Sequence record: PV340539 | From: Escherichia phage mEp234 | DNA length: 40,804 bases | Direction: 5' to 3' (one strand) | In this document: one piece after another, positions 1 through 40,804 of the stretch | Position numbering within the stretch: position 1 is the stretch's first letter | How the letters are laid out: each line of letters begins with the position of its first letter | The notes under the pieces: model-generated | What the model was told of the DNA's origin: nothing | Databases searched by the model: none | The model's input: only the letters and a program-made list of their open reading frames with translations | Translations under genes and position numbers: made by a program

Positions 1-177
1 TTCGTAATCGTGAAAGAGGAAGGTAGGTTGTTTATCTGTGTCTGTCATTGTCTAGCATTGTCCACTGTAGTTAATTAACTGTCTGTTATAACTCGAAAAA
101 CAACCATTTTTTCACCTGAGTATGTCTACTAACGTCAAATATAGTTGTTTACTGTGCGCTGTTGTCCATGTGATATT

Positions 178-1659: not shown

Positions 1660-2004
1660 TTAGTCCTTGCGTAGCTCACTGATTCTTCTGTAAGTCTCTG
1701 GTGCTTTGTTCCCGTACGTCTTCATTTCAGACTTCAACAGAGCAACGAGGGGATCCCATTCGTTGAGGATGCCTTTGAATGCCGGAACGCGCTTTGCAAC
1801 CTTGTCGAATGAATCTCTGATTTCTGGAATCTGCTCGACAAGTGCAACGCATCGTCTGAAATCGGCTGCGTCATGAGGAGCGCCGAAGTGATGACCATAG
1901 ATATTCTTTTTCAGGCCACATGCGATTGAGGCAAGAGTTGCGCTACTGATGCCGACATCGCCAGTCGATAGCCATTTCAAAACCTTCATAGCCAAATCTG
2001 ACAT
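1660..2004 (-). CDS. Hypothetical phage protein (distal end of the leftward early operon)
   Basis: 114-aa ORF with GGAG RBS upstream of ATG; no family recognised. Confidence 0.55.
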   Translation of the reverse strand: MSDLAMKVLKWLSTGDVGISSATLASIACGLKKNIYGHHFGAPHDAADFRRCVALVEQIPEIRDSFDKVAKRVPAFKGILNEWDPLVALLKSEMKTYGNKAPETYRRISELRKD

Positions 2005-2026
2005 TTCTTGTCTCCATAAAACAAAA

Positions 2027-2050
2027 CTCGCCGTAGCGAGTTCAGATAAA
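2027..2050 (-). terminator. Putative intrinsic terminator (hairpin 'aactcgc-tacg-gcgagtt' + U-run on minus strand) between IS and 114-aa gene
   Basis: Stem-loop followed by TTTTGTTTT on minus strand. Confidence 0.3.
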
Positions 2051-2218
2051 AGAAATCCCCGCGAGTGCGAGGATTGTTATGTAATATTGGGTTTAATCAT
2101 CTATATGTTTTGTACAGAGAGGGCAAGTATCGTTTCCACCGTACTCGTGACCTGCTCCCCGTTGATTAGTACACCCCGATGTTAGTAATGTCTTCATAAG
2201 CCACATGAGGACATCCCC

Positions 2219-2482
2219 ATGAAGAAGCGTTTTTCCGACGAACAGATCATCAGTATTCTCCGCGAAGCCGAAGCTGGGGTACCCGCCCGTGAACTCTGCC
2301 GCAAGCATGCCATTTCCGATGCCACGTTTTACACCTGGCGTAAGAAGTATGGCGGTATGGAGGTGCCTGAAGTTAAGCGCCTGAAGTCGCTTGAGGAAGA
2401 GAACACCAGACTCAAGAAGCTGCTTGCCGAAGCCATGCTGGATAAAGAGGCGCTTCAGGTGGCTCTTGGGCGAAAGTACTGA
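2219..2482 (+). CDS. IS3-family transposase OrfA (HTH DNA-binding part)
   Basis: 87 aa '[46 protein letters not shown]...' typical IS3/IS407 OrfA with leucine zipper. Confidence 0.9.
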
Positions 2483-2505
2483 CGACAGACCAGAAGCGGG
2501 AAGCC

Positions 2506-3339
2506 GTGATGTTGATGTGTGATGCGACCGGTCTGTCGCAACGTCGTGCCTGCAGGCTTACAGGTTTATCCCTGTCGACCTGCCGCTATGAGGCTCACCG
2601 TCCGGCTGCTGATGCGCATTTATCAGGGCGCATCACTGAGCTGGCACTGGAGCGCAGGCGTTTTGGCTACCGTCGTATTTGGCAGTTGCTGCGCCGTGAA
2701 GGGCTTCATGTTAATCATAAGCGCGTGTACCGGCTTTATCACCTCAGTGGCCTGGGCGTAAAACGCAGAAGACGTCGTAAAGGGCTGGCAACAGAACGTC
2801 TGCCGCTGCTCCGTCCGGCGGCGCCCAATCTGACCTGGTCGATGGATTTCGTCATGGACGCACTTTCCACCGGTCGCAGGATCAAGTGTCTTACCTGCGT
2901 CGATGATTTCACAAAGGAATGCCTGACGGTCACTGTTGCCTTTGGGATTTCAGGCGTTCAGGTCACGCGTATTCTGGACAGCATTGCACTGTTTCGAGGC
3001 TATCCGGCGACGATAAGAACTGACCAGGGGCCGGAGTTCACTTGCCGTGCACTGGATCAATGGGCCTTTGAGCATGGTGTTGAGTTGCGCTTAATCCAGC
3101 CGGGCAAGCCAACGCAGAACGGATTTATTGAGAGCTTTAACGGACGATTTCGCGATGAATGTTTGAATGAGCACTGGTTCAGCGATATCGTTCATGCCAG
3201 GAAAATTATTAATGACTGGCGGCAGGATTATAACGAATGCCGCCCGCACTCCACGCTGAATTATCAGACACCGTCTGAATTTGCAGCGGGCTGGAGAAAG
3301 GGTCATTCTGAGAATGAAGATTCCGACGTTACTAACTGA
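2506..3339 (+). CDS. IS3-family transposase OrfB (DDE catalytic domain); probably expressed as OrfAB fusion by -1 frameshift in 2446-2482
   Basis: 277 aa with '...[54 protein letters not shown]...'; frame -1 relative to orfA, open from 2446. Confidence 0.9.
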
Positions 3340-3368
3340 GTGTTGTATCTAATCGTGGGGGCAGGTCA

Positions 3369-3513
3369 CAACGGCGCTGTAGTTTGTCCATTCTTTCTTT
3401 TTTGTCTGGCGATCGTAATACTGAACGCCAGCACGGATGTTGAATCCGATATTTTCCCCGGCCTGAAACTCTCTTGCGGGCTTGTTTAGTCTTACAGTAA
3501 TCGAATGTGCCAT
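3369..3513 (-). pseudogene. 5' fragment (~48 codons) of a gene translationally coupled to erf, truncated by the IS element; weakly SSB/OB-fold-like
   Basis: ATG overlaps erf stop (TAATG); 'MAHSITVRLNKPAREFQAGENIGFNIRAGVQYYDRQTKKKEWTNYSAVV' then runs into the IS inverted repeat; no continuation beyond the IS. Confidence 0.45.
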
Positions 3514-4118
3514 TAAGCAGCCGCTCCTTCTAATTCGTCTCGTCTGATGTTGTAAACGTCCTGCGCTTTGTGCTGCTCCGGTGTTCCTTCGAGCATCTTC
3601 CACGCTTTGGCGAACGCCTGTTTAAGCTCTTCCACGGTGTTTTTTTGCATTGCTGCGTCAGTGAATGCTTTTAGAACCTGTTCAGGTGTAGGTGATGGTT
3701 TTGATTGCTTTGCTGCTGCGTTCTGCTGATGTTTATGTTCGTCGGTATCTGCATCTTTCGCATCATCAATGCCGAACAAACCATTAAGGCAATACTTGCG
3801 CGCATAAGAGCTTGTAGCTCCAGTAACTTGTGCAGAATCCATTCCTTTCTTGCTTTCTTCCTCTCGTGCAAGAGCAGTTGCCGTATGACTGTTTTCGCCA
3901 TCGGTAATAGTTGCCGTGGCTTTCACGTAATACCGATCACCAATCAACACAACTTCATCGCTGATTGATAAAAACAGGCCATTCAGTAACGGCTTAACGC
4001 CTTCAAGAATGTCTTCGCAGCTTCTGTATTTATATTTACCGAATGAGTTGTACTGATTCTTTGGCGCGTTCAGATTCTCCTGAATAGCTGCCAGTCTTGC
4101 GTAAAATTCTTTGCTCAT
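3513..4118 (-). CDS. erf: Erf-family ssDNA annealing recombinase (P22 Erf-like)
   Basis: 'MSKEFYARLAAIQENLNAPKNQYNSFGKYKYRSCEDILEGVKPLL...' recalled as matching P22 Erf; likely start is the internal ATG at 4118 (track ORF 3513..4148). Confidence 0.85.
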   Translation of the reverse strand: MSKEFYARLAAIQENLNAPKNQYNSFGKYKYRSCEDILEGVKPLLNGLFLSISDEVVLIGDRYYVKATATITDGENSHTATALAREEESKKGMDSAQVTGATSSYARKYCLNGLFGIDDAKDADTDEHKHQQNAAAKQSKPSPTPEQVLKAFTDAAMQKNTVEELKQAFAKAWKMLEGTPEQHKAQDVYNIRRDELEGAAA

Positions 4119-7000: not shown

Positions 7001-7426
7001 TTATTTTCTAGATGATGTTGGGGACCAAGGTAACGTTATAGTATCTAACACTGTGTTTTTGAACATATTTTCAAAAACTGTTTTTGTACATACATATACA
7101 TAATTTTCAAAAAACCAAGCATTTTCATTATAAAAATCCTCAGTTACTTCTTCATCGAGGTCACACTCAAATGTTAGTGTCAAGGTAGCCTCTGCCTTGA
7201 ACAATACATCCTCACCATCATCAAAATCTTTTTTATCGCGAGGGAAACCAGTTATCGATGGCTTAACTTCAATAAAGAGCCAATTTCCATCTTCATCTTT
7301 TTGAGGAACAACGTGATGCTCAGAAAATTTTAAGCTATATTTTCCGCCTTCAGAATTATCACTGTCGTCGATAAAAAGGGAAGAACCCTCGAGATCAAAT
7401 CCCTTAAAGCGAATTTTATCAAGCAT
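7001..7426 (-). CDS. Strongly acidic 141-aa protein of unknown function, third gene of the rex-slot cassette
   Basis: ATG overlaps hicB-like stop (TGATG); D/E- and aromatic-rich ('DDSDNSEGG', 'DKKDFDDGED', 'ECDLDEEVTEDFYNENAWFFENY'); track ORF 7001..7462 starts at a TTG, the ATG at 7426 is preferred. Confidence 0.6.
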   Translation of the reverse strand: MLDKIRFKGFDLEGSSLFIDDSDNSEGGKYSLKFSEHHVVPQKDEDGNWLFIEVKPSITGFPRDKKDFDDGEDVLFKAEATLTLTFECDLDEEVTEDFYNENAWFFENYVYVCTKTVFENMFKNTVLDTITLPWSPTSSRK

Positions 7427-8131: not shown

Positions 8132-8157
8132 GAAGGATACATCCTCTGTTAAAGGTA

Positions 8158-8180
8158 GTGCAACTGAAATCTAGTTGCAA
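8158..8180. promoter_or_regulatory. Imperfect palindrome GTGCAACT-n7-AGTTGCAA upstream of hicA-like start; candidate operator/promoter of the cassette
   Basis: Inverted repeat 7/8 match, ~30 bp upstream of the GTG start at 8131. Confidence 0.3.
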
Positions 8181-8291
8181 GCTATGCTATCTATAGACAA
8201 AATGTTTCATTGTTATATCAGAAGATACCCGATCTGTTTCACCTTCAACTACTATAATTTGTTATAAGCTATCAACCGGTGGAACTGCGAA

Positions 8292-8390
8292 TTAGCCGCT
8301 GGGTGTTGCGTATCCATCGATGATAAACCATGCCATAAACCCCATAGCTACGATGAACACCAAGATCGGAAACACTATACCAATTCTCAT
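8292..8390 (-). CDS. Small hydrophobic ORF (32 aa, single predicted TM helix) between cI and hicA-like
   Basis: RBS AGGGA-n7-ATG; 'MRIGIVFPILVFIVAMGFMAWFIIDGYATPSG'; below ORF-track cutoff. Confidence 0.3.
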   Translation of the reverse strand: MRIGIVFPILVFIVAMGFMAWFIIDGYATPSG

Positions 8391-8494
8391 GATTTTATCC
8401 CTGTCTACCCATGCTTCCTGGGCACCAGCGGCTCGTTACTCGGCATCACCCTTAATCCGCCGCCCCATGTGTTTGTTGTGATCCGTTGCTGGCC

Positions 8495-9211
<717 letters not shown>

Positions 9212-9218
9212 TTAAATC

Positions 9219-9284
9219 TATCACCGCAAGGGATAAATATCTAACACCGTGCGTGTTGACTATTTTACCTCTAGCGGTGATAAT
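9219..9284. promoter_or_regulatory. oR3-oR2-oR1 with divergent pRM and pR, lambda type
   Basis: oR3 'TATCACCGCAAGGGATA', oR2 'TAACACCGTGCGTGTTG', oR1 'TACCTCTAGCGGTGATA' (one base differs from my recollection of lambda oR1); pR -35 TTGACT / -10 GATAAT. Confidence 0.9.
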
Positions 9285-9299
9285 GGTTGCATGTACTAA

Positions 9300-9509
<210 letters not shown>

Positions 9510-9516
9510 GTAACAC

Positions 9517-9562
9517 CGCTCTTTTCACAATGGACATTCGTCCTACGTCGCTGACAAAGCGA
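9517..9562 (+). promoter_or_regulatory. nutR: boxA-like 'CGCTCTTTT' and boxB hairpin 'TCGCTGACAAAGCGA'
   Basis: boxA consensus-like element 22 nt upstream of a 5-bp stem / GACAA-loop hairpin, right after cro. Confidence 0.6.
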
Positions 9563-9647
9563 GTCCCAATATATCTGACCAACTAAGGCCATATGCGTTT
9601 CCACGCATACCTTTCAACTAACTATTCACTATTGGAAATCTTAAGAA

Positions 9648-9944
9648 ATGGAAAGAACAAGTTACAGCAAACTATCACAGCGTGACGTTGATCGCGCAGA
9701 AACAGATTTACTCATCAACCTGTCAACGCTTACCCAGCGCGGTCTGGCAAAGATGATTGGCTGTCATGAATCGAAGATAAGCAGAACGGACTGGAGATTT
9801 ATTGCTTCGGTCTTGTGTGCTTTTGGAATGGCATCAGACATCAGTCCGATTAGCAGGGCTTTTAAGTATGCGCTTGATGAAATCACAAAGAAAAAATCCC
9901 CGGCCGCCACCGAGGATTTTAAGCAAATTGATATGCAATTCTGA
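9648..9944 (+). CDS. cII: CII-family transcriptional activator
   Basis: 98 aa; HTH '...GLAKMIGCHESKISRTDW...' and C-terminus '...KKKSPAATEDFKQIDMQF' resemble lambda CII ('...KKRPAATERSEQIQMEF'). Confidence 0.7.
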   Translation: MERTSYSKLSQRDVDRAETDLLINLSTLTQRGLAKMIGCHESKISRTDWRFIASVLCAFGMASDISPISRAFKYALDEITKKKSPAATEDFKQIDMQF

Positions 9945-9976
9945 GGGAATTACTGGATCAATCCACAGGAGTAATT

Positions 9977-10141
9977 ATGACAAAACGTCGTAAGAAATAC
10001 CAGGAAAAAGAAGAGATTCGACACCCTGATTCACCTGAGGGATTAGTGGTAGCCGCAGCAAATAACAGGGCGTTCGCAGAGCGCCTTGTTGGTGTTTACA
10101 GACTAGCCAAAGCAGGAGTGAAGCATGGGCGTCGTTAAGTT
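9977..10141 (+). CDS. Small basic ORF (54 aa) between cII and the replication initiator
   Basis: RBS AGGAG-n7-ATG; 'MTKRRKKYQEKEEIRHPDSPEGLVVAAANNRAFAERLVGVYRLAKAGVKHGRR'; overlaps initiator start by 17 nt. Confidence 0.35.
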
Positions 10142-11015
10142 AGCTGATTACAGGCATAACCCTGTACAACATCAGGAGGCATCCAGTATGGGGTATGTCT
10201 CTATACACCGCCAGTTTATGGACAGCAGGCTCTATAAGGACTCTCAGGCAGTACATCTTTGGCTTCACTTAATCCTCAAGGCTAATCACGAATCTACTGT
10301 CGTCAATACGGATATCGGTCCGATAACTGTTGATCGCGGTCAGATGATAACTGGACGCCCGTCGCTGGTCAGAGAAACATTCATCCCCGACAACAAAGTT
10401 CGGAGCTTATTACGGACTTTTGAGTCGAAAGGGATGCTTAATATTTGCTCGATGGGGAAGAAATTTAGCCTGTTTACAATCGTTAAATATGACGATTTTC
10501 AGGCAAAAAATTGTCCAACGGTTGTCCAACGGTTGTCCAACGCAAACACCAGTAATGGCGCGGATCTCAGCGGAGATTGTCCAACGGTTGTCCAACGGTT
10601 GTCCATAAACAATAATATAAATAATATCTCTAATACTGACGTATTAGAGAGTGCCACAGCAGACAAAAAGTCTGACAAGAAAAAACCTTCCGTTAGCTGT
10701 CAGGATGTTGTCGATGCTTACCACGAAATCCTTCCTGAAGCGCCAAGAATCCGCGCACTGAATGACAAGCGTAAAAACCAGATCCGAACGTTCTGGCGCA
10801 AAGCCGGAGTGATAACCCGTCAGCTTGACGGGCATGGGTTCACGATGCAGGACTGGAGAAATTATTTGAGCTACGTAGGCGAAAATTGCCGATGGATGTT
10901 CGAAGAGCGCCCAAACCATCAACGCGGAACCGTCTGGCACAAAAAGGGATTTGATTTCCTGCTTAACGATAATACCTACCTGAAAGTTCGTGAGGGTGAA
11001 CACGATGACCGATAA
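10125..11015 (+). CDS. Replication initiator (O-like replisome organiser) with internal ori iterons
   Basis: 296 aa; good RBS; iterons and AT-rich tract inside the gene as in lambda O; followed by helicase gene. Confidence 0.75.
   Translation: MGVVKLADYRHNPVQHQEASSMGYVSIHRQFMDSRLYKDSQAVHLWLHLILKANHESTVVNTDIGPITVDRGQMITGRPSLVRETFIPDNKVRSLLRTFESKGMLNICSMGKKFSLFTIVKYDDFQAKNCPTVVQRLSNANTSNGADLSGDCPTVVQRLSINNNINNISNTDVLESATADKKSDKKKPSVSCQDVVDAYHEILPEAPRIRALNDKRKNQIRTFWRKAGVITRQLDGHGFTMQDWRNYLSYVGENCRWMFEERPNHQRGTVWHKKGFDFLLNDNTYLKVREGEHDDR
10511..10606 (+). repeat. Origin iterons: TTGTCCAACGG x3, 33-bp spacer, x2.7, followed by AT-rich tract (10607-10640)
   Basis: Perfect 11-bp tandem repeats read directly in sequence, inside the initiator gene. 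Confidence 0.85.
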
Positions 11016-12441
11016 TTTTTATGCGCCGCCCCATAGTATCGAGGCAGAGCAGGCGGTGATTGGTGGATTGCTTCTGGATGATGACAGCAGTGAGCGCGTC
11101 CAGAAAGTTCTGGCGATACTGAAGCCTGATTCATTTTACAGCCGACCACACAAAATCCTTTTCGAAGAAATAACCAGAATGCACCGGGAGCAAAAGCCAG
11201 TAGATGGGCTGACGCTTTTCGATGAACTGGAGCGCAAATCGTTAACGGCGTCTGTTGGCGGTTTTGCTTATATCGCTGAGATCGCAAAGAACACGCCAAG
11301 CGCAGCAAACATCGTTGCCTATGCAATGCAGGTTCGTGAAACCGCAATGGAACGCTACGCCATCAACCGCATGACTGAAGCGACGGAATTGCTCTATTCC
11401 CGCAACGGAATGACTGCAACGCAGAAGTACGAAGCTATTCAGTCGATTTTCACGCAACTGACAGACCATGCAAAAACCGGATCGCGTCGCGGCCTTCGCT
11501 CATTTGGTGAGGTCATGGAAGACTGGGTTAGCGACCTTGAGAAGCGATTTGACCCGTCAGGCGAACAACGAGGAATGAGCACAGGGATCCCATCGTTGGA
11601 CAGGATGCTGTCACCGAAAGGTCTGGTAAAAGGCTCTCTGTTTGTCATTGGCGCTCGCCCTAAGATGGGGAAAACGACGCTATACAGCCAGATGGCAATC
11701 AACTGCGCAGTGCATGAGAAAAAGCCCGCTCTGATGTTCAGCCTTGAAATGCCAGGTGACCAGATACTGGAAAAACTGGTGGGACAGAAGTCAGGTGTTA
11801 ACCCGAATATTTTTTACCTTCCGGCGACAAATGACGCTGATGACGGCTATCAGGGTGATTACGATGGTGACTTCAACAGGGCGATCGAGACAGCCAATCG
11901 CTTGAGTGAAATCGACCTGCTTTACATCGACGACACGCCGGGATTATCTCTGGCTCAAATCGTCAGCGAAAGCCGTCGAATCAAACGAGAAAAAGGATGC
12001 GTTGGCATGATTCTGGTCGATTACCTGACGCTAATGACCGCTGAAAAGGCCGATCGCAACGACCTTGCATACGGCATGATCACCAAAGGACTGAAGAACC
12101 TTGCCAAAGAGCTTGATTGCGTTGTTGTGCTTCTGACACAGCTTAACCGCGCATTGGAAAGCCGAACCAATAAACGCCCATTACCATGTGACTCGCGCGA
12201 TACAGGGCAGATTGAACAGGATTGCGATTATTGGGTGGGGATCCATCGGGAAGGTGCTTTTGATGACAGTGTTCCACCTGGTGAAACCGAACTAATCCTT
12301 CGTCTCAACCGTCATGGCAATACCGGCACGGTGTATTGCATTCAGGCAAATGGCGCTATTTATGACACAGACCAACAGTCTGCTGAAATGCGCCGCCGTG
12401 AACGCGAGGAACCGCAATCCAAGAAGAAAGGAGGATTCTGA
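11005..12441 (+). CDS. Replicative DNA helicase, DnaB family (P22 gp12-like)
   Basis: Walker A 'GARPKMGKT', N-terminal DnaB-like 'SIEAEQAVIGGLLLD'; ATG at 11005 overlaps initiator stop. Confidence 0.9.
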   Translation: MTDNFYAPPHSIEAEQAVIGGLLLDDDSSERVQKVLAILKPDSFYSRPHKILFEEITRMHREQKPVDGLTLFDELERKSLTASVGGFAYIAEIAKNTPSAANIVAYAMQVRETAMERYAINRMTEATELLYSRNGMTATQKYEAIQSIFTQLTDHAKTGSRRGLRSFGEVMEDWVSDLEKRFDPSGEQRGMSTGIPSLDRMLSPKGLVKGSLFVIGARPKMGKTTLYSQMAINCAVHEKKPALMFSLEMPGDQILEKLVGQKSGVNPNIFYLPATNDADDGYQGDYDGDFNRAIETANRLSEIDLLYIDDTPGLSLAQIVSESRRIKREKGCVGMILVDYLTLMTAEKADRNDLAYGMITKGLKNLAKELDCVVVLLTQLNRALESRTNKRPLPCDSRDTGQIEQDCDYWVGIHREGAFDDSVPPGETELILRLNRHGNTGTVYCIQANGAIYDTDQQSAEMRRREREEPQSKKKGGF

Positions 12442-20197: not shown

Positions 20198-21712
20198 ATG
20201 ACGCGAGGTGAGCGTGTAATAGCGTTCATTGAGCGCTTTTGCATCGTGCCAGAAGGCAAGCTTATCGGCCAACCTATGCGGTTGGACCCCTTTCAGAAAG
20301 ATTTCATCCTGGCGGTTTACGACAATCCAGCCGGAACGGATATGGCGATCCTCTCCATCGCCCGAAAAAATGGTAAGACTGGCCTGATTGCCGGAATTCT
20401 GCTGGCTCACCTGGTGGGGCCTGAAGCGGTGCAGAACACGCAGATTGTCAGCGGTGCACTCAGCCGGGAACAGGCGGCCATCGTTTTTAACCTCGCGGTG
20501 AAGATGGTTAACCTGAACCCCAAGCTGCAGGAGATTGTGCACATTACGCCCAGCGGCAAAAAGCTGATCGGCCTGCCGTGTAACGTCGAATACAAGGCTT
20601 TATCCGCAGAAGGTAAGACGACGCACGGCCTTTCCCCCATTCTGGCCATTCTCGATGAAACAGGGCAGGTTAGGGGCCCGCAGGATGATTTTATCGATGC
20701 AATAACTACGGCGCAGGGGGCTCATGAAAACCCGCTGCTAATCGTTATCAGTACGCAGGCAGCAAACGATGCTGACCTGCTTAGCATCTGGATTGATGAT
20801 GCGGTCAAATCGAAAGATCCGCACATCGTGTGCCACGTTTATGAAGCGCCAAAAGACGCTGATATCAGTAAACGCGAGTCCTGGCTGGCTGCGAACCCGG
20901 CACTGGGAACATTCAGGTCAGAAAAAGACATGGCGCGCCAGGCTGAGAAAGCTGGCCGAATGCCAAGCTTCGAAAACACCTTCCGAAACCTCAACCTCAA
21001 TCAGCGCGTGTCTACCGTATCGCCGTTTATCTCCCGCAGCGTGTGGGAGCTTTGCGGAGAGATGCCGATTAACACCCCGAGGAAGTGGTACGCGGGGCTG
21101 GATCTGTCAGCCAGGAACGACTTAACGGCGCTGGTTATCGCTGGTGAAGCAGATGATGGTGTCTGGGATGTTTTCCCCTTCTTCTGGACACCGCAAAAGA
21201 CTCTTGAAGAGCGAACCAAAACGGACCGAGCACCCTATGACGTTTGGGTGAGGGAGGGGCTGCTGCGCACCACGCCAGGAGCTTCGGTGGATTACTCATT
21301 CGTCGTTGCGGATATCGCTGAAATTATCGGTGATTTCGACCTTACCTCGATGGCTTTTGACCGCTGGCGCATTGACCAGTTCAGGAAGGATGCCGATGCC
21401 ATTGGGCTGAGCCTCCCGCTGGTCGAGTTCGGCCAGGGCTTTAAGGATATGGGGCCAGCTGTAGACACGCTGGAGTCTCTGATGCTTAACGGGCGCGTGA
21501 GGCATGGCATGCACCCCGTATTAACGATGTGTGCTGTGAATGCGGTGGTGGTGAAAGATGCTGCTGGCAACCGCAAGCTCGATAAATCCAAAGCAACGGG
21601 CCGTATTGATGGCATGGTCGCAATGACAATGTCCGTTGGTGCTGCTAATGGGGAAGTTACCGAACAGGGTGGTGACTTCGACGACTTCATTTTCCGACCG
21701 CTGAGCATGTGA
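20198..21712 (+). CDS. Terminase large subunit (ATPase + nuclease)
   Basis: 504 aa, Walker A 'ARKNGKTG'. Confidence 0.9.
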   Translation: MTRGERVIAFIERFCIVPEGKLIGQPMRLDPFQKDFILAVYDNPAGTDMAILSIARKNGKTGLIAGILLAHLVGPEAVQNTQIVSGALSREQAAIVFNLAVKMVNLNPKLQEIVHITPSGKKLIGLPCNVEYKALSAEGKTTHGLSPILAILDETGQVRGPQDDFIDAITTAQGAHENPLLIVISTQAANDADLLSIWIDDAVKSKDPHIVCHVYEAPKDADISKRESWLAANPALGTFRSEKDMARQAEKAGRMPSFENTFRNLNLNQRVSTVSPFISRSVWELCGEMPINTPRKWYAGLDLSARNDLTALVIAGEADDGVWDVFPFFWTPQKTLEERTKTDRAPYDVWVREGLLRTTPGASVDYSFVVADIAEIIGDFDLTSMAFDRWRIDQFRKDADAIGLSLPLVEFGQGFKDMGPAVDTLESLMLNGRVRHGMHPVLTMCAVNAVVVKDAAGNRKLDKSKATGRIDGMVAMTMSVGAANGEVTEQGGDFDDFIFRPLSM

Positions 21713-23003: not shown

Positions 23004-23681
23004 ATGCCTGAAATCGTAAAAACGCTGTCCTTCGACGAGACAGAAATCAAATTCACCGGTGACGGTAAACAGGGGATTTTTGAAGGCTACGCCTCTGTTT
23101 TTAATAACACCGATTCCGATGGCGACATCATTCTGCCCGGGGCGTTTAAAAACGCGCTGGCGAACCAGACCCGAAAAGTGGCGATGTTTTTTAACCACAG
23201 GACGTGGGAACTGCCGGTTGGCAAATGGGACAGCCTGGCTGAGGACGAAAAAGGCCTGTATGTGCGCGGTCAACTTACCCCAGGACACAGCGGCGCCGCT
23301 GACCTAAAAGCGGCAATGCAGCACGGTACGGTTGAAGGTATGTCGGTTGGCTTTTCCGTTGCGAAAGACGATTACACCATCATTCCAACAGGCCGCATTT
23401 TTAAGAATATCCAGGCTCTGCGCGAAATCAGCGTCTGCACTTTCCCCGCCAACGAACAGGCTGGCATCGCAGCCATGAAAAGTGTCGATGGCATTGAAAC
23501 GATTCGTGATGTGGAGAACTGGCTGAGGGATTCAGTCGGCCTCACCAAATCACAGGCAGTTGGGCTAATTGCCCGGTTTAAGTCAGCGATTCGGAGCGAG
23601 TCCGAGGGCGACGGAAACGAAGCACAAATAAACGCTCTGCTTCAGAGCATCAAATCTTTCCCTTCTAACTTAGGTAAATAA
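23004..23681 (+). CDS. Prohead maturation protease (HK97 family)
   Basis: ~225 aa between portal and major capsid; track start 22992. Confidence 0.8.
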   Translation: MPEIVKTLSFDETEIKFTGDGKQGIFEGYASVFNNTDSDGDIILPGAFKNALANQTRKVAMFFNHRTWELPVGKWDSLAEDEKGLYVRGQLTPGHSGAADLKAAMQHGTVEGMSVGFSVAKDDYTIIPTGRIFKNIQALREISVCTFPANEQAGIAAMKSVDGIETIRDVENWLRDSVGLTKSQAVGLIARFKSAIRSESEGDGNEAQINALLQSIKSFPSNLGK

Positions 23682-40749: not shown

Positions 40750-40804
40750 TAAAATCACAAATCATGAAACCCTTGTTCATGGCGGTTCTCAGGGGTATTG
40801 CGCG

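Follow-up and report, generated by a model that had tools for sequence, protein, structure and literature searches.

ISSen4 at a truncated SSB-like gene of Escherichia phage mEp234 and a probable IS-anchored deletion in its early-left region

Overview

The window analyzed here is the whole 40,804-nucleotide stretch of sequence record PV340539 from Escherichia phage mEp234. In this window, a complete copy of the insertion sequence (IS) ISSen4 lies between the remains of two genes: the 5' part of an SSB-like gene of the HK97 gp40 type, coupled to erf, and the 3' end of an Ea8.5-family gene. It is very likely that ISSen4 made or anchored a deletion of about 3 kb at this site and that the published mEp234 genome is an IS-free derivative, where we infer the order of the events and the molecular routes. 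The window and the published genome would then form a natural before/after pair, in which an IS carves a deletion of about 3 kb and is subsequently lost, together with 1 bp, by an excision that does not depend on the duplication, and this more specific reading is regarded as reasonably probable.

The ISSen4 element and its flanks

The following features of the element are found in the window:

2148..3368, plus strand: complete ISSen4, IS3 family, 1221 bp, with 100% full-length identity to RefSeq-annotated copies
2219..3339, plus strand: transposase OrfAB, from the ORFs and their frames, Pfam, and a joined CDS over the same span in E. coli C
2219-2482, plus strand: orfA, 87 aa, HTH_Tnp_1 (PF01527)
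about 2506-3339, plus strand: orfB, 277 aa, rve/DDE (PF00665, PF13683), in the -1 frame relative to orfA

The left end of the IS is located at 2148 (TGACCTGC...) and the right end at 3368 (...GCAGGTCA). The terminal inverted repeats, TGACCTGCTCCC and GGGGGCAGGTCA, are imperfect and form 5'-TG...CA-3'. In RefSeq, the 100%-identical copies are labeled 'IS3-like element ISSen4 family transposase, programmed frameshift', and orfA and orfB of the window are predicted to be fused in the same manner, by a programmed -1 frameshift. OrfAB is intact, and the element is oriented antisense to pL transcription. The size, which lies within the 1.2-1.55 kb typical of the family, the TG...CA repeats, the frames of orfA and orfB and the near-identity to reference copies identify the element as ISSen4 of the IS3 family; ISSen4 elsewhere has the same 1221 bp, the same repeats and an orfA and orfB joined by a -1 frameshift. 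Twenty copies of 100%-identical ISSen4 are present in E. coli C and its derivatives. In the GenBank annotation of PV340554.1, the transposase is compared with that of IS407.

Comparison copies of ISSen4 were retrieved with the left 31 nt of the element from one-genome-per-species assemblies, resulting in 19 full copies with both flanks, all of which have ends identical to those of the IS in the window. A first-pass annotation, made from the sequence alone, had described an IS3-family element ending at 2148 and 3368 without a target-site duplication. The family and the coordinates are correct, as shown by the 100% identity and the 19 copies with the same ends. The tetramers beside the IS, ctcg (2144-2147) and caac (3369-3372), are indeed unlike each other, while a perfect 4-bp duplication is present at 6 of the 19 other copies; one further copy has a match of three of the four bases, and the remaining 12 have none. 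The same annotation had named a 3-4 bp repeat, appearing after refinement of the IS ends, as a finding that would speak against its reading. A direct repeat of 3, 4 or 5 bp was looked for at the IS ends in the window and was absent at every shift of the ends by a base. A hidden duplication is therefore ruled out, since the ends are fixed by the 19 copies. Since a simple insertion of an IS3-family element would show a short direct repeat of 3-5 bp, the absent duplication marks the window copy as rearranged and is no argument against its assignment to ISSen4. Judged by the 12 copies without a duplication, rearranged ISSen4 copies are common elsewhere. The 4-bp targets of the other copies have no obvious consensus that would steer the IS to this site.

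The truncated SSB-like gene

On the right side of the IS, three features on the minus strand are relevant:

3513..4118, minus strand: erf, intact, 201 aa, the next gene upstream in the pL operon; PF04404 ERF with E=2e-44; matches mEp234 gp29
3369..3513, minus strand: 5' fragment of an SSB-like gene of the HK97 gp40 type, 48 codons plus 1 nt, translationally coupled to erf
3349-3513, minus strand: the present ORF, 54 aa, consisting of the 48 gp40 codons plus 1 nt and then 6 IS-encoded codons, with its stop at 3349-3351

The product of erf contains the ERF domain and is predicted to be an Erf single-strand annealing protein. The stop codon of erf (3515-3513) and the ATG of the SSB-like gene (3513-3511) overlap as TAATG on the minus strand. 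The earlier description of an ORF that overlaps the erf stop and runs for about 48 codons until the IS agrees with the 48 codons plus 1 nt found here, and the end of the truncated ORF lies within the right inverted repeat of the IS. In HK97 gp40 and HK544 gp31, the first 48 codons are 98-100% identical to the window fragment, and these genes have the same place and the same translational coupling downstream of erf. In Enterobacterales prophages, the gp40-type family comprises over 100 protein clusters; its full-length members have 124-134 aa, and the intact gene usually has about 127 codons. In an alignment of the family, a conserved domain of ~105 aa is followed by a Q/P-rich linker and a C-terminal D-(I/P)PF tip, as in bacterial SSB. 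The window fragment corresponds to residues 1-48 of the about 105 in the domain, and the linker and tip are absent. Compared with HK97 gp40, the window keeps 38% of the gene; over half of the OB domain is gone, and so are the linker and the C-terminal IPF tip.

The first-pass annotation had called this gene ssb-like, a label that holds for the full-length family in terms of structure. The AlphaFold2 model of a full-length relative (P0041) has a mean pLDDT of 82.7, and in a Foldseek search of this model against the PDB, the best 25 matches were all SSBs, followed by PriB, with E=7e-5 and weaker and TM values of 0.4-0.55. A match to SSB proteins by sequence, which had been proposed as a check, did not materialize: searches with HK97 gp40 in Pfam (including SSB PF00436) and PDB gave no match. 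The SSB assignment is therefore based on fold prediction and on the motif at the C-terminus, by which the full-length gp40 family is SSB-like, with ssDNA binding as a predicted property. In a survey from 2025, HK97 gp40 was likewise called from its predicted structure, as 'SSB-1b' (Genome Res 2025, PMC12315714).

The Ea8.5 remnant and the missing segment

On the other side of the IS, two features are present:

2093..2147, minus strand: 3' remnant of an Ea8.5-family gene, consisting of one base of the preceding codon, the last 17 codons (EYGGNDTCPLCTKHIDD) and the stop codon, from translation and alignment to intact genes
1660..2004, minus strand: 114-aa ORF with unassigned function, the first intact gene downstream of the deletion (mEp234 gp27), from the ORF list; kept beside xis/int in relatives

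Intact Ea8.5-family genes, to which the remnant aligns, encode 93 aa and are located at 7104-7385 in two relatives (L009 and L010); an intact relative matches PF20735 with E=1e-48 in Pfam. It had been claimed that no frame on the far side of the IS continues the short ORF. This is accurate, since the far side is the C-terminus of an Ea8.5-family protein in its own frame. Between the ea8.5 remnant and the 114-aa ORF, the sequence contains two hairpins that resemble terminators, at 2075-2054 and 2043-2024. Downstream in the window, the 114-aa ORF, xis and int are still present.

Both breakpoints can be placed by homology. In the right flank, homology to gp40, observed in HK97, HK544 and about 900 E. 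coli genomes, reaches 3369 and ends at the IS; base 3368 also matches gp40, yet it is the terminal A of the IS. In the left flank, homology to intact Ea8.5-family genes reaches 2147 and ends at the IS. Here, the three bases that follow CTCG in ea8.5, TGA, also match, yet they are the IS tip. Two relatives, L008 (from E. coli DETEC-P61, with the same integrase and the sbcB site) and L063, have the int-xis-114aa and erf-gp40 modules in common with the window; in place of its 88 bp and the IS, they have 3.4 and 2.8 kb, respectively. The stretch in L008 contains the rest of gp40, abc2 (anti-RecBCD), DUF2737, ead/Ea22, DUF550 and other ea genes, and in L063, it contains the rest of gp40, abc2, DUF2737, an ead/Ea22 gene and unnamed ORFs. 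L009 and L010 have the usual gene order, namely the annealing protein, the gene at the SSB position, abc2, DUF2737, ea genes, Ea8.5, the 114-aa ORF and xis (or a TorI homologue); in L010, the integrase is next after the xis position.

Both breakpoints coincide with the two IS ends, and as the intact relatives have 2.7-3.4 kb between these points, about 3 kb is missing from the window. The loss comprised the SSB gene's 3' two-thirds and probably, judged by synteny, also abc2, DUF2737 and several ea genes. This content and the size of the loss are estimates from mosaic relatives, among which none was found with both the Ea8.5 gene and this erf/gp40 module. The first-pass annotation had proposed that the rest of the short gene and further early-left genes were removed, and the relatives do hold the remainder of gp40, abc2, DUF2737 and ea genes at this place. 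Alignment of the flanks to intact relatives, as it had suggested, delimits a deleted segment of 2.7-3.4 kb with its edges at the IS ends. Intact relatives were reached through a neighboring 322-aa protein, which occurs in hundreds of unrelated prophages.

Relation to the published mEp234 genome

The window and the published mEp234 genome (NC_019715 / JQ182732) have 0 mismatches over all 39,578 bp, which align in three blocks (blastn). The window is mEp234 in prophage order: it is permuted, and both termini are located at the annotated attP (an sbcB-type site). The sole difference between the two is 1222 bp, ISSen4 plus one C, which in the window stand between what are positions 23242 and 23243 of mEp234. 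This position is exactly the gp40'/'ea8.5 joint. The joint reads ...CCACCGTACTCG/AACGGCGCTG... in mEp234 (with the slash at the joint) and ...CCACCGTACTCG-ISSen4-C-AACGGCGCTG... in the window. In mEp234 it is unambiguous, as the right-hand base differs from ea8.5 and the left-hand base differs from gp40. One single base is of particular relevance:

3369, no strand: single C, missing from published mEp234 and equal to the intact gp40 base at this position; the last gp40 base kept (alignments, blastn)

The extra C restores the intact gp40 sequence, and the joint in mEp234, located exactly at the IS site, is one base shorter than that of the window. The same gp40'-'ea8.5 truncation is present in both genomes. 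The truncated ORF stops in the IS in the window version (54 aa), whereas mEp234 gp28 (64 aa) has the same 48 gp40 codons and continues into the ea8.5 remnant, which is read out of frame. Related phages with an ORF that is naturally this short had been named as evidence that would count against a truncation; mEp234 gp28 is short, is from the same lineage and belongs to a family of 124-134 aa. Because of the 0 mismatches over 39.6 kb and the joint exactly at the IS site, the truncation of gp28 is best read as the IS-free scar of the same event in the same lineage and not as a naturally short homologue, and it does not speak against the first-pass reading.

Occurrence of the junctions in other genomes

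The IS junctions and the IS-free scar were searched for in multiple collections. None was found in 5,426 complete E. coli genomes, and among the INPHARED phages, only mEp234 itself matched. In IMG/VR, the first pattern gave three hits, all by chance, and the second gave one, to a variant of intact gp40. Neither a junction nor the scar was present in GTDB representative genomes or in JGI metagenomes. The 54-aa and 84-aa IS-fusion ORFs had no exact match in a collection of 15 billion proteins, and in an exact-product look-up, the mEp234 gp28 product was on record only from the phage entry. These results suggest that the event is private to this lineage, with no independent replicate in the collections searched. 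PhiR12_5 was considered as a clue to the direction of the event; its ISSen4 is located at a prophage edge in E. coli C, at a different site, and is uninformative.

Proposed history and alternative explanations

The data can be accommodated in three steps. In the first step, ISSen4 would have entered the SSB-like gene downstream of erf at the target CAAC, and the right copy of the duplication would have survived at 3369-3372. The collections searched yielded no ancestor whose gp40 is intact apart from the IS (CAAC...CAAC), and we infer this step. In the second step, a deletion would have extended from the left end of the IS to 17 codons before the stop of the Ea8.5-family gene, removing about 3 kb. 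This deletion would also have taken the left copy of the duplication, and therefore the flanks would not match. It could have occurred as an adjacent deletion by a single IS, through one-ended strand transfer or through template switching at the three bases, TGA, that the IS tip shares with ea8.5, or by homologous recombination of two ISSen4 copies in the same orientation. In the third step, near-precise excision of 1222 bp (the IS plus 1 C) in the lineage of published mEp234 would have left the gp28 fusion ORF as a scar.

Both the deletion and the excision have precedents. It has been described that copy-out-paste-in ISs, including the IS3 family, undergo a transposase-dependent excision that is stimulated by IEE, and that the size of such deletions is within a few bp of the IS length, while larger deletions anchored at an IS end also occur (10.1101/2023.06.07.543989). 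IS-end-anchored deletions and near-precise excision, as proposed here, are observed for IS629, ISApl1 and IS30. For the loss of ISApl1, the spread of a few bp covers the IS length plus 1 bp of the window (10.1101/2023.06.07.543989). The reported excision joints commonly have a microhomology of 2-4 bp; in contrast, the ends of the 1222-bp loss have no microhomology (0 bp). The insertion of an IS followed by an adjacent deletion, as proposed in the first-pass annotation, is supported by the breakpoints at the IS ends, by the position of the IS exactly on the joint seen in mEp234 and by the additional base of gp40.

The order of events could also be reversed, with an IS-independent illegitimate recombination that made the gp40'-'ea8.5 deletion and ISSen4 landing at the joint later. 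Published mEp234 is IS-free and otherwise identical, so that either form could be the parent, and with zero SNPs between them, the two forms cannot be rooted. A source of the element is also at hand, as E. coli C and derivatives with their 20 copies of the 100%-identical IS serve as hosts for lambdoid phages, and the window sequence would result if the IS inserted canonically, duplicating CTCG, and TCG was then lost. This order, however, demands insertion at one phosphodiester bond of about 39,600, a chance of about 1 in 40,000 for a random insertion, at a site to which no obvious consensus among the 4-bp targets of other copies would direct the IS. Moreover, the insertion would have to be non-canonical (no duplication, +1 bp), or a second deletion, of 3 bp, would have to follow it, and the extra base would have to agree with intact gp40 by a coincidence of 1 in 4. 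Since the reverse order needs three coincidences and the proposed order needs only known IS behavior, the IS-bearing form is taken as the probable intermediate, and a later landing at the joint is considered improbable. An artefact, in which the IS derives from assembly or contamination or in which the short ORF naturally has this length, is more improbable still and hardly credible: at least one unrelated phage record (PQ520124.1) is plainly contaminated with ISSen4, and mEp234 gp28 is short too (64 aa), but at both junctions the sequence passes cleanly into unique phage DNA, with a genuine base of gp40 in addition, the family has 124-134 aa in over 100 clusters, and the tail of gp28 is ea8.5 read out of frame.

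For the second step of the proposed history, it is possible, although rather doubtful, that two copies in the same orientation, one in gp40 (at CAAC) and one in ea8.5 (at CTCG), recombined and thereby deleted ~3 kb together with one copy. Such a recombinant would have exactly the flanks observed, CTCG at the left end and CAAC at the right end, many ISSen4 copies elsewhere are without a duplication, as frequent recombination between copies would give, and hosts with up to 20 copies exist. On the other hand, the IS would have had to insert twice, independently, within 3 kb of the same 40-kb prophage, and no intermediate with two ISs was found in the collections searched. The TGA identity between the IS tip and the next three bases of ea8.5 would then be a 1-in-64 coincidence, whereas it is predicted by microhomology or template switching of a single IS. 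This identity is a weak hint, on which the adjacent deletion by a single IS is tentatively rated above recombination between two copies. The two routes predict different ancestral junctions: with a single IS, an ancestor with ISSen4 in intact gp40 would carry the junction AAATACAAC-TGACCTGC, while with two copies, the second copy in ea8.5 would give the junction GCAGGTCA-CTCGTGATAAT, and the gp40 site would show the right end of the IS.

Consequences for the recombination module

In the window, Erf lacks its cognate SSB and Abc2, and the phage is still viable. mEp234 is a working, plaque-forming phage that is used for building lysogens (PMC7986917), and therefore the lost genes are dispensable in the laboratory. 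The first-pass annotation had concluded that the recombination module is partly decayed. This applies to the accessory recombination genes, with an SSB stump and abc2 gone, and does not apply to erf, which is intact in a viable phage.

In Table 1 of the 2025 survey, mEp234 is the prototype of the Rec-module type 'SSB +, SAP +, anti-RecBCD -' (PMC12315714). The 'SSB' of mEp234 is a 48-codon stump, presumably non-functional, and the absence of abc2 is probably due to a recent deletion; on this evidence, the choice of mEp234 as the class prototype should be reconsidered. The window also provides a sequence-level case in which an IS can create a mosaic joint in a temperate phage and then erase its own traces there. 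If this is general, some novel joints and 'Rec-module types' of lambdoid phages would be scars of transient IS visits and not of illegitimate recombination between phages, and the mEp234 type, 'SSB + annealing protein, no anti-RecBCD' (PMC12315714), is a candidate for such a scar. The kind of event, an IS insertion with an adjacent deletion in the early-left region of a prophage, is well known and needs no new mechanism, and its value is modest and mostly curatorial. It would account for the odd 64-aa gp28 fusion ORF and for the absent anti-RecBCD gene in the mEp234 reference genome.

ISSen4 and its flanking bases

ISSen4, the IS3-family element at window 2148-3368, begins with TGA, and in intact ea8.5 genes the three bases directly after CTCG are identical to these (window 2144-2150 compared with 7155-7161 of L010, a relative in which ea8.5 is intact). 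The left deletion joint carries a 3-bp microhomology (TGA), for which the random chance is 1/64. The bases flanking the element, G at 2147 and C at 3369, lengthen its terminal inverted repeat by one pair, giving arms at 2147-2159 and 3357-3369. In the published, IS-free mEp234, the base that was probably lost along with the IS is this flanking C at window 3369.

Among 19 full-length ISSen4 copies in different genomes (loci L012-L057, from other species), a target duplication is absent in 12, and a perfect 4-bp duplication is present in six. Secondary rearrangements seem to involve ISSen4 often. The element has also been found in other phage records. In PQ520124.1, a 3-kb record named 'Enterococcus phage IME_EF3', it is present with 99.7% identity, probably as a contamination, and the record of PhiR12_5 from E. 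coli C (PV340554.1) starts inside an ISSen4 copy, beside a truncated integrase.

Insertions in gp40-type SSB genes

In other E. coli, gp40-type SSB genes are broken in their 5' part by ISs other than ISSen4. In protein P0013, gp40 residues 1-47 are joined to the tail EPPRESWRLNFLRKR, which is presumably an IS629/IS1203-type end; back-translation of P0013 places this junction 5 nt away from that of ISSen4. In a second case (locus L058 from CP057031.1, at 8143-11431 of the locus), a 3.3-kb block lies within gp40 codons about 5-7; it codes for an IS3-family transposase as well as for a protein of the IstB type (IS21). This part of the gene, at 3369-3513 in the window, may be a hot spot for ISs.

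The window as a prophage and the mEp234 recombination module

The window is the att-to-att prophage form of mEp234 (window 1-2 and 40803-40804): its start lies 2 nt ahead of mEp234 position 21098 and its end at 21099, within the annotated attP core, an sbcB-type site. Its source is probably a lysogen rather than virion DNA. The window also contains a conserved ORF:

1660-2004, minus strand, conserved 114-aa ORF that adjoins xis/int in many lambdoid prophages

No Pfam family was found for this ORF.

mEp234 has been listed as the prototype of the recombination-module class 'SSB + SAP, no anti-RecBCD' (PMC12315714, Table 1). The SSB gene of mEp234 is only a 64-aa fusion remnant, resulting from the gp40'-'ea8.5 deletion.
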